DNA of 64,000 nucleotides, from assembly GCA_963752155.1 (NCBI GenBank), contig CAVVXH010000010.1, positions 584,888 through 648,887 of the forward strand, written 5' to 3'. The position numbers and the translations under genes were made by a program. The notes below the pieces were generated by a model. That model was not told the origin of the DNA and searched no databases. It saw only the letters and a list, made by a program, of their open reading frames with translations. The stretch is from an uncultured Parachlamydiaceae bacterium. Its GTDB lineage: Bacteria; Chlamydiota; Chlamydiia; Chlamydiales; Parachlamydiaceae. Shown one piece after another: positions 44,755-47,007 of the stretch; the stretch's first letter is position 1, and each line of letters starts with the position of its first letter.

Positions 44755-47007
44755 ATGCAAATCAATGCAGATGAAATGCGAAAGTTCTATAAACAGCTTC
44801 CTGAAAGAATCTTTCAAATAAGATCTCAAAAAGGCAAGCCCCTGACTTTAACAGAAAAAATACTCTTTTCTCACGCAAAAACTTTTGTAGATGTACTATC
44901 TCCTGTTCGATTATCAGTCAATCATATTGCAATGGGGGATGCATCTGCTCAAGTTGCTCTTCTCCAGTTTCCTTGGTGTGGAGAGAAGACTTCAGCAGTT
45001 TCAACATCAGTTCATTGTGATCACCTGATCATTGCTGAAAATGGGATTGAACAAGACCTTATTCGAGCTCAAGAAGAAAATGGTGAGATCATTTCCTTTT
45101 TACAAAGTGTTTCAGAAAAATATGGAATAGGATTTTGGAAACCAGGCTCAGGCATCATCCATCATCAGTTGTTTGAGCATTATGTTTTTCCCAGTGGAAT
45201 CATGTTAGCTACCGATTCTTATGCTTCCTATGCCGGTGGTCTCGGAATGTTAGCATTTGAGGGGACTGGTGTTGATGTTTTGGATCTTATGTCAGGCTCT
45301 ACTTTCGAAATAAATTTTCCACGACTCATTGGCGTTCATCTCACAGGAGAGCTCCAGGGGTGGGCCTCTGCAAAAGATCTAGCCTTGAAGTTAATAAGGA
45401 TCTTGACTGCTTCAGGGGGTAAAGGAGCCATCATTGAATATTTCGGTAAAGGGGCTGAAACAATTTCCTGTTCTGGTAAAGCTTTACTTTGTGCAATGGG
45501 AGCCGAAACTGGAGCCCTAAGTTCCATATTTCCCTATGATTCATCTATGGCTAATTTTTTAATTTGGACAGGAAGAGATGAAATCGCAATGTTTGCTAAT
45601 CAGATGCAAGAGCACTTGCAGGCTGATTTGGAGGTTTACAAAGATCCAAAAGCTCATTATGATCAAGTGATAGAAATCGACCTTTCTACAGTAGAACCCG
45701 AAATTGGGGGACCTCTTGCTTCAGACAATGCCAGGCCTTTGTCAGAATTGTCAGCATTGACATTTCAGCATGGCTATCCTGAAAAGATTTCTGTAGCTCT
45801 CATTGGGCATACAAATGCAAGTTATGAAGACCTTAAAAAGGCAGCTCTTATAGGAAAGCAAGCCTTAAAGCATGGGCTAAAAGCAAAAATACCGTTATTG
45901 ATCTCTCCTGGATCAGAGCAAATTAAGTCCAGACTTGTACAAGAGGGATTATGGAAGATTTTGGAAAACGTTGGAGCCCAGCACTTTGTGGGTGCTCATG
46001 GCACTAATGAAAAGCAATGGAAACGTCATGACATCCCTTTTGGGGAAAGAAACTCCATTCTCACGACTTACAATAGAACCTCTTTAGGTCTATATGATGG
46101 CAATCCAGGAACACATAGCTTTATTGCGAGTCCTGAAATCGTCATGGCGTTGGCCTTAGCAGGCTCGTTAAATTTTAATCCCCTTGAAGATACTCTTTTA
46201 AGCCCACAAGGTTTACCGGTGCGTTTAAATGTTTTAATAAAGGAGAAATTTGCTTTAGATAATTCTCAAATTAAGTTTTTTGAGAAACTCGATTTTGAAG
46301 GTTTTGTTCCTCCTGCTGGAGATCCTTCCTCAGTACAAATTGCAATTGATCCGTCGAGTGAAAGGCTTCAAATGTTAGAACCATTTAGGTCAACTTCTGA
46401 AAAGGATTTTGTTGACTTGCGTCCACTCATAAAAGTCAGTGGAAAATGCTCGATCGCTCAAATTTCTCCTGGCGGTAAATGGCTTAAATATCGAAGTCAT
46501 TTAGGCAATCTTTCCAATAACTTATTTTCCTTGGTTCCAAATGAATTTCGGGATGAGATTGGACGAGGAAAAAATCTACTTTCAGGGAATATTGAATCTC
46601 TTGGCAAAATAGCAAAAGACTATCAAAAGGAAGGAATTGGTTGGATTGTTATTGCTTCTGAAAATTATGGAGAAGGATCTTATAACGATCATGCAGCTCT
46701 TTCAATGCGTTTTCTCGGCGGAAGAGCAGTCATTGCTCAAAGTATTGATCCTATGCATGAAATGATTTTGAAGAAACAGGGGATATTGGTATTAACTTTT
46801 GCATGGCCGGAAAATGGCAACAGAATCAGAGAAGATGATCTGATTGATTTGTTGGGAATTCAGGAAATGGTTGTCAATGATCCTCTTCAGTTACTTTTAA
46901 AGCATGCTGATGGAACGACAGAAAGGCTGAAGCTAAATCACTCTTATACCGAAGAGCAAATTGCATGGTTTAGAGCTGGAAATTTTTTATACCAGGCTCG
47001 GTCATAA
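44755..47007 (+). CDS. mitochondrial-type aconitase homolog lacking the Fe-S ligands (pseudoenzyme)
   Basis: LTLTEKIL, VHCDHLI, GFWKPGSGIIH, IGV.LTG.L.GW.S.KD, NYGEGS, WFRAG; the three cysteine positions are altered. Confidence 0.88.
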   Translation: MQINADEMRKFYKQLPERIFQIRSQKGKPLTLTEKILFSHAKTFVDVLSPVRLSVNHIAMGDASAQVALLQFPWCGEKTSAVSTSVHCDHLIIAENGIEQDLIRAQEENGEIISFLQSVSEKYGIGFWKPGSGIIHHQLFEHYVFPSGIMLATDSYASYAGGLGMLAFEGTGVDVLDLMSGSTFEINFPRLIGVHLTGELQGWASAKDLALKLIRILTASGGKGAIIEYFGKGAETISCSGKALLCAMGAETGALSSIFPYDSSMANFLIWTGRDEIAMFANQMQEHLQADLEVYKDPKAHYDQVIEIDLSTVEPEIGGPLASDNARPLSELSALTFQHGYPEKISVALIGHTNASYEDLKKAALIGKQALKHGLKAKIPLLISPGSEQIKSRLVQEGLWKILENVGAQHFVGAHGTNEKQWKRHDIPFGERNSILTTYNRTSLGLYDGNPGTHSFIASPEIVMALALAGSLNFNPLEDTLLSPQGLPVRLNVLIKEKFALDNSQIKFFEKLDFEGFVPPAGDPSSVQIAIDPSSERLQMLEPFRSTSEKDFVDLRPLIKVSGKCSIAQISPGGKWLKYRSHLGNLSNNLFSLVPNEFRDEIGRGKNLLSGNIESLGKIAKDYQKEGIGWIVIASENYGEGSYNDHAALSMRFLGGRAVIAQSIDPMHEMILKKQGILVLTFAWPENGNRIREDDLIDLLGIQEMVVNDPLQLLLKHADGTTERLKLNHSYTEEQIAWFRAGNFLYQARS

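Follow-up and report, generated by a model that had tools for sequence, protein, structure and literature searches.

Why would a bacterium keep a full-length aconitase gene whose catalytic site has been taken apart? The question is raised by one gene in a 64,000-nucleotide stretch of DNA (the window) from an uncultured bacterium whose family is probably the Parachlamydiaceae. The gene encodes a mitochondrial-type aconitase homolog, P0001, in which all three Cys ligands of the [4Fe-4S] cluster are replaced. An initial annotation, made from the DNA letters alone, had proposed a maintained pseudoenzyme, and this reading has held up: P0001 is a selected pseudoenzyme and not a decaying relic. It has lost residues essential for catalysis, Cys-poor orthologs exist, purifying selection acts in several species, and the same genome encodes an AcnA-type aconitase. 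Several explanations of what the protein does instead are weighed below.

Fold and active site of P0001

The gene and its altered active-site codons, the latter located by alignments, are as follows.

44755..47007, + strand: mitochondrial-type aconitase homolog P0001, 750 amino acids (aa), without Fe-S ligands (open reading frame, Pfam, NCBIfam and PDB alignment)
45217..45234, + strand: codons 154-159 (D-S-Y-A-S-Y), replacing D165-S166-H167-T-P-N170
45808..45810, + strand: codon of His352 at the place of Ser357-Cys358 (first cluster ligand), one residue deleted
45997..46008, + strand: codons 415-418 (H-G-T-N), replacing C421-G-P-C424 (second and third cluster ligands)
46678..46686, + strand: codons 642-644 (S-Y-N), replacing S642-S643-R644

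The reading frame starts with ATG. Its product matches the Pfam families Aconitase (1.5e-91, residues 52-470) and Aconitase_C (2.4e-21, residues 557-683), and the top NCBIfam model is TIGR01340 (aconitase_mito; 734.7 bits, model positions 1-742 of 745). A phmmer search of the PDB retrieved pig and bovine mitochondrial aconitase (1c96, 5acn, 7acn) at E ~4e-195, with query residues 12-747 aligned to chain residues 17-746. The closest named relatives in the protein database are aconitate hydratases of Parachlamydiaceae and Chlamydiota. Identity amounts to 50-54% with the canonical mitochondrial-type orthologs of chlamydiae and to 42% with the pig/bovine enzyme in structural alignment. P0001 thus has the length and the four-domain fold of mitochondrial-type aconitases (ACO2/Aco1; 5ACN, 7ACN, 1C96), and the full architecture of TIGR01340 (Aconitase plus Aconitase_C, ~750 aa) is present. 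However, its score stays below the curated equivalog cut-off of 825.35, and both the three Cys ligands and the complete set of substrate and catalytic residues are missing.

Residues are numbered here as in the pig enzyme, with positions taken from the alignments of P0001 to PDB chains and relatives; for the 21 scored sites, we take the pig numbers and the functional roles (cluster ligand, substrate, catalytic) to be those of the established enzyme. Eleven of these sites are altered in P0001. The changes are Q72G, H167Y, N170Y, N258A, C421H, C424N, R452L, D568A, S643Y, and R644N, and at C358 a Ser-Cys pair has become a single His by deletion of one residue. Unaltered are D100, H101, H147, D165, S166, E262, N446, R447, R580, and S642. 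Within the substrate and catalytic set, H101, D165, S166, R447, R580, and S642 are kept, and every listed replacement other than C421H and C424N falls into this set. The motif changes listed in the initial annotation are all visible in the PDB alignment (IGSCTN to IGH-TN, ANACGPCIGQW to VGAHGTNEKQW, QDATAQ to GDASAQ, DSHT to DSYA, NRNFTGRND to NRTSLGLYD, TTDHIS to SIAQIS, GSSREHA to GSYNDHA, and SFARIH to SIDPMH), as is the His that it had pointed out at two former Cys sites, the C358 and C421 positions. With the ligands and catalytic residues gone, P0001 should be unable to assemble the cluster or to act as an aconitase, as far as the sequence can tell.

These changes are not due to chance, because related database proteins and metagenome loci are nearly uniform at the same sites. 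Two database searches yielded 138 related proteins, of which 126 have the canonical residue at each of the 21 sites. Among the 80 metagenome loci found with a profile query, 67 are fully canonical, 12 are partial and canonical at every covered site, and one carries R580C; none of the 80 shows the altered pattern, and a query of the metagenomes with the single protein returned no relative. The R580C locus (L188) is an otherwise canonical mitochondrial-type aconitase and may represent a sequencing error or a variant. The assembly of the window's genome (G000) is error-prone, with rpoB in three pieces containing internal stops, but the deletion and the substitutions in P0001 are common to orthologs from other assemblies. 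The one-residue deletion at C358, for example, is found in P0001, P0002, P0003, and G002. The rpoB fragments (G000:C6:10172-13898) are interrupted by TGA and TAA codons, a pattern that recurs in several other family genomes with few contigs and suggests that long-read assemblies were left uncorrected; single frameshifts in G000 should therefore not be read as pseudogenes.

An AlphaFold2 model of P0001 based on a 35-sequence alignment reached a mean per-residue confidence (pLDDT) of 77.7 and a predicted template modeling score (pTM) of 0.72, with confidence below 50 at residues 133-169, 414-430, 440-451, and 497-514. A canonical control modeled with the same alignment scored higher (pLDDT 89.0, pTM 0.88) and was low only in the loops corresponding to 420-428 and 442-452. 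The stretch 133-169, which holds codons 154-159, has a pLDDT below 50 in P0001 versus ~88-92 in the control. As the control lacks this drop, the low confidence in the segment His147-Asn170 and in the linker belongs to the altered protein alone, which may be taken as weak evidence of local remodeling. In Foldseek searches the model matched 5acn and 7acn best (TM score 0.83-0.85), by a clear margin over the closed (0.72) and RNA-bound (0.61) forms of iron regulatory protein 1 (IRP1); the IRP structures 3snp and 6vcd are among the weaker matches. Many of the new residues are larger (Tyr, His, Phe, Arg, Glu) and would fill the empty cluster cavity, which may now be occupied by the side chains of Tyr156, Tyr159, His352, His415, Glu419, and Tyr643.

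Altered relatives and selection

P0001 belongs to a graded series. In total, 17 altered sequences were collected, 12 database proteins including P0001 and five from genomes, which share 43-85% pairwise identity, with P0002 and the G002 gene 85% identical. When 15 of them were used as a profile against the protein database, no further altered member appeared. By the state of their cluster cysteines they fall into the following groups.

All three Cys kept (8): P0004, P0005, P0006, P0009, P0010, G059, G046, G045
C358 alone lost (4): P0007, P0013, P0016, P0062
Three Cys lost (P0001, P0003, G001) or two lost (P0002, G002), 5 in total

The search for Cys-less orthologs in other Chlamydiae, advised by the initial annotation, thus turned up Cys-poor orthologs in other members of the group. 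In a FastTree phylogeny (P0062 was not placed in trees), 13 altered sequences form one clade with a support of 1.0 and a long stem, nested among canonical sequences of the family. Subclade A (support 0.999) retains the Cys ligands for the most part, subclade B (1.0) lacks at least C358, and subclade C (1.0) consists of P0001, P0003, P0002, and G002. The sequences of G059 and of G045/G046 join the 13-member clade at supports of 0.41 and 0.98, respectively, and long-branch attraction may contribute to this placement; the mean root-to-tip length is 1.01 for altered and 0.44 for canonical sequences. Altered members that retain the cysteines are already changed at substrate-contact residues. Six relatives in subclade A keep cluster Cys (five of them all three) and carry S166P, N170F, N258S, R447C, R452H, S642P, and S643C. 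Since substrate residues are altered while the cysteines persist, it looks as if the specificity for the aconitase reaction disappeared before the cluster ligands, which subclades B and C lost separately.

The five database proteins P0004, P0005, P0006, P0009, and P0010 combine three Cys with S166P, N170F/Y, N258S, R447C/S, R452H/L, S642P, and S643C/Y, and are candidates for an Fe-S dehydratase whose substrate has changed.

All 17 altered sequences are open reading frames. An apparent split or frameshift in G002 falls at a run of N and is an artefact; the true residues at 642-644 of this ortholog are P, H, and S. The frame at 44755..47007 is intact although the same assembly breaks rpoB into three pieces. 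Between G000 and G002, the nonsynonymous divergence (dN) of the altered gene is 0.227, compared with 0.205 for nusB, 0.197 for murB, and 0.100 for acnA (2.3-fold lower than the altered gene). The differences are distributed as 187/112/404 over the three codon positions, a strong excess at the third. A maximum-likelihood codon model gave an omega (dN/dS), rough as an absolute value owing to synonymous saturation, of 0.056 for six altered genes versus 0.009 for eight canonical genes, both far below 1. The initial annotation had named a dN/dS near 1 together with disrupted orthologs as one outcome that would speak against it; the value is ~0.06, and the orthologs are not disrupted. Substitution-only simulations of neutral evolution to 67% identity accumulated a mean of 18.8 stop codons, and none of 300 runs retained an open frame.

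The distribution of the losses points in the same direction. In 33 canonical sequences, 248 alignment columns are invariant, comprising 20 active-site and 228 other columns. The canonical residue is kept in 45% of the active-site cells in subclade C (54% in 16 altered sequences) versus 72% of the other cells (73% in the 16). Thus, the losses are indeed concentrated at the active site, as had been supposed from P0001 alone. Ortholog-to-ortholog identity is higher at the canonical-invariant columns (e.g., 0.77 versus 0.64 elsewhere), which indicates that selection continues to protect the original structural core. The constraint on the altered genes is relaxed but real.

Ancestral locus and second aconitase

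The gene order next to P0001 was compared with canonical aconitase loci of the family, for which the following features serve as landmarks.

43086..43973, - strand: murB, synteny anchor
43983..44483, - strand: nusB, synteny anchor common to canonical aconitase loci
44484..44754, no strand: divergent intergenic region between nusB and the aconitase homolog, 271 bp

In six of 14 canonical loci (1.5-kb flanks), nusB and murB adjoin the mitochondrial-type aconitase gene divergently, an arrangement identical to that in the window, and nusB also adjoins the altered genes of G002 and G059. This shared position identifies the P0001 gene as the positional ortholog of the family's ordinary tricarboxylic acid (TCA) cycle aconitase and not as a stray paralog. 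Compared with canonical aconitases of this type, P0001 evolves two to three times faster. The nusB locus of G001, which belongs to the same genus, contains no aconitase remnant, and the subclade B copy of this genome sits elsewhere; subclades B and C may be old paralogs or transfers. A methyltransferase-like neighbor gene is common to G000 and G002 only. By consensus matches, the intergenic region contains a promoter-like site at 44706-44735 (+) and AAAGG ~10 nt 5' of the ATG.

A genome search found exactly two Aconitase-family genes in G000. The second, on contig C2, encodes an AcnA-type protein of 954 aa with intact DSHT, SCTN, CTTC, and SSR motifs; a canonical aconitase elsewhere in the genome, the first check suggested by the initial annotation, is therefore present. 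Contig C2 is unlikely to be a contamination, because it carries the genome-specific dispersed repeat that is also found on the contig of the window. Orthologs in sister genomes are 85% and 76% identical to this AcnA. As G000 also has two citrate synthase-family genes and one isocitrate dehydrogenase (Iso_dh) gene, the branch from citrate to 2-oxoglutarate has a plausible working aconitase. This counterpart of P0001 belongs to a different subfamily and is not a recent duplicate.

The relationship between both types extends across the family. Searches covered 41 relatives first and then all 73 genomes of the family; AcnA was scored at E <= 1e-60, and G042, which contains fragments, was left out of the scoring. 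AcnA occurs in 38 of the 73 genomes. It was found in none of the 26 genomes whose mitochondrial-type enzyme has all 20 scored residues intact, and in five of the six with an altered mitochondrial-type gene (G000, G001, G002, G059, G046, and G045), although related genomes are not independent in such counts. In the sixth, G045, AcnA was not found, and this genome is only 67% complete. As intact enzymes, AcnA and the mitochondrial type exclude each other across the family. In a single-gene RpoB tree, G059 is sister to the genus of the window, AcnA-only and altered-gene genomes are their neighbors, and AcnA-bearing genomes appear in several separate clades, so that displacement may have occurred once or several times.

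Some family genomes contain a third aconitase-family type, with open frames of ~650-690 aa that are 30-36% identical to P0001 (e.g., G006:C3:1051993-1053039, G088:C1:1375229-1376953, and G049:C7:10840-12540). In G049, which has this third type, neither AcnA nor the mitochondrial type was found.

The window has further conspicuous features. At 36225-40765 (+), two adjacent cyanophycin synthetase-like/Mur-ligase ATP-grasp genes (593 and 869 aa) lie upstream of three genes, one Mur ligase-like, one with a PHP domain, and murB. A 71-nt inverted repeat (42920-43086; 86% complementary, 25 nt between the arms) is located in the PHP-domain gene, within its 5' part. A tandem array at 48107-48230 with a 9-bp unit (AACGATAAG / AACGATAGG) in at least 10 registers is located just upstream of a tandem gene family, which comprises three paralogs of 359, 414, and 398 aa (48469-52138, - strand) that are made up of 1.2-kb direct repeats with 64-92% identity and have no Pfam matches. 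Finally, a dispersed palindromic repeat is present as a full palindrome (48261-48386), a half copy (44589-44674), and a fragment (40790-40814). Arms of ~46-59 nt flank a 9-nt loop. The 3.13-Mb genome contains 56 occurrences of the 25-nt core, 29 forward and 27 reverse, mostly in inverted pairs ~70-77 bp apart. It looks like a hairpin element resembling a miniature inverted-repeat transposable element (MITE) or a repetitive extragenic palindrome (REP).

Possible roles of a cluster-free aconitase

Kept under selection without its catalytic site, P0001 would work as a non-catalytic protein, and it is probably a permanently cluster-free binding or scaffold protein that retains an ancestral, catalysis-independent second role. 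Its gene descends from the ancestral mitochondrial-type TCA cycle aconitase of the family and still occupies the ancestral locus. The AcnA-type enzyme, judging from its intact motifs, would convert citrate into isocitrate in this lineage. The old enzyme has lost its three [4Fe-4S] cysteines and half of the residues for catalysis and substrate binding; the full-length four-domain fold, for which purifying selection is evident, has been kept. The partner could be a protein, a nucleic acid, or a metabolite. More tentatively, one might suppose that the mitochondrial-type aconitase of chlamydiae has a second function independent of catalysis, comparable to the contested role of yeast Aco1 in maintaining mitochondrial DNA, and that this function alone kept the gene once AcnA supplied the catalytic activity; we regard this broader version as possible but doubtful.

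Several observations weigh against a maintained binding protein. The omega of the altered genes is ~6 times the canonical value, and, relative to RpoB, the altered proteins evolve ~2-3 times faster than canonical ones (median ratio to RpoB distance 3.72 in 6 pairs versus 1.67 in 171 pairs), so that constraint is clearly relaxed. Pairwise NG86 estimates of dN/dS are unusable, as synonymous sites are saturated (pS, the synonymous difference, ~0.75). About 27% of the other invariant residues have been replaced as well, and a new residue is common to at least 11 of the 13 clade members at only 5 of the 248 canonical-invariant columns, so that no newly acquired site stands out clearly. Beyond the ancestral nusB-murB no conserved neighbors were found, and thus no conserved partner gene nearby. 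Furthermore, 33 of the 38 AcnA-bearing genomes lack any mitochondrial-type gene, indicating that its role is dispensable in most relatives. A search for RNA sequencing runs carrying the gene listed none, and one DNA run, at 0.07 of the sampled words.

Precedents exist for aconitase folds in binding roles. IRP2/IREB2 and apo-IRP1 are the classical aconitase-derived binding proteins, in which the fold works without aconitase activity; IRPs belong to the AcnA/IRP branch and have kept their cysteines. P0001 has the aconitase fold in common with IRP2/IREB2 and apo-IRP1, whereas it represents the mitochondrial branch and its ligands are gone. Another parallel is offered by the yeast Aco1 mutants C382S and C445S, which, in the available excerpts of the respective papers, are proposed to maintain mitochondrial DNA (mtDNA) without catalysis (PMC3770056, PMC7435893). 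Both these mutants and P0001 are mitochondrial-type proteins without a cluster, and the mutants are reported to retain a biological role. However, the yeast proteins are laboratory mutants and their interpretation is disputed, whereas the chlamydial loss is natural, affects multiple residues, and is fixed in several species.

Could P0001 be a nucleic acid binder, a permanently apo aconitase that acts on RNA hairpins or DNA? Apart from the preservation of mtDNA reported for the yeast mutants, excerpts of other studies describe apo-AcnB of Escherichia coli as binding the 3' untranslated region of its own mRNA (PMC4150767) and apo-AcnA of Mycobacterium tuberculosis as acting post-transcriptionally (PMC7527780), and the P0001 gene has the half copy of the hairpin repeat 100-165 nt upstream. 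Yet these bacterial precedents are AcnA and AcnB types, not the mitochondrial type, and the mtDNA interpretation for Aco1 is itself disputed, according to the part of the paper that was available (PMC3770056). The altered proteins are acidic (isoelectric point 5.2-6.1, net charge -10 to -23; 5.8 and -16 for P0001) and not more basic than 33 canonical ones (mean 6.09). The link to hairpin elements raised, as speculation, in the initial annotation does not stand: the repeat is a genome-wide dispersed element with 56 arms, it was not found at the orthologous loci of the sister genomes G002 and G001, and between acnA and its nearby copy there is another gene. On balance, nucleic acid binding as the role of P0001 appears unlikely.

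Alternatively, P0001 might be a new enzyme or a sensor of a small ligand with a rebuilt pocket, possibly containing a His-based metal site. The four closest orthologs all have D100, H147, D165, E262, N446, R447, and R580, Tyr167 and Leu452 are fixed, His occupies two former Cys positions in G000, and subclade A, with its cluster Cys kept and its substrate residues consistently altered, looks like a group with changed specificity. However, these four orthologs do not agree in what now occupies the three former Cys sites (H/F/S/F, H/R/R/R, and N/C/S/C), and positions 72, 166, 170, 258, 642, 643, and 644 vary as well. The catalytic Ser642 is kept in G000 only, R580 is the sole one of four substrate arginines kept throughout the clade, and few new residues are shared within it. 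This variability makes a conserved new metal or ligand site unlikely, against the new metal site considered in the initial annotation, and fits a dismantled pocket in a preserved fold. A rebuilt active or sensory site thus seems quite improbable.

That the gene is a functionless relic in slow decay after takeover by AcnA would explain its faster evolution, the loss of ~27% of the other invariant residues, and its absence from most AcnA-bearing relatives, but it is hard to reconcile with 17 of 17 intact sequences at such divergent identities, a dN equal to that of nusB and murB, the third-position excess, the low omega, the failure of all neutral simulations to stay open, and a frame that is intact in an assembly with a broken rpoB; we consider this explanation very improbable. 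That P0001 is still an aconitase with unconventional ligands is scarcely credible: the full fold and, in G000, D100/H101, D165, E262, and S642 are kept, but the three Cys, R452, R644, S643, Q72, H167, and N170 are gone, what stands in their place is not conserved, and a canonical AcnA is present.

A binding or scaffold protein therefore remains the preferred reading of P0001. In a full-text literature search, neither a mitochondrial-type aconitase devoid of the Cys ligands nor this chlamydial clade was found described, and chlamydial genomics papers, in the excerpts available, note no more than the presence or absence of aconitase. The AcnA/IRP branch has known non-catalytic aconitase relatives, whereas a naturally cluster-free protein of the mitochondrial type kept by selection was not found described. 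The family also provides an example of one aconitase type displacing another. The old gene is absent in most family genomes, and the few lineages that keep it, with the catalytic site dismantled stepwise, point to a second role of the fold. P0001 is a natural protein in which such a role could be studied free of catalysis or of oxidative cluster loss. If a second function did keep the gene, the clade would be a natural separation-of-function series, in which first the substrate residues, then one Cys, and then the whole cluster site were given up, and it would allow the non-enzymatic role of aconitases of the mitochondrial type to be addressed cleanly. Annotation pipelines would label the gene 'aconitate hydratase'; in metabolic reconstructions of these symbionts, the aconitase step of the TCA cycle should be assigned to AcnA.

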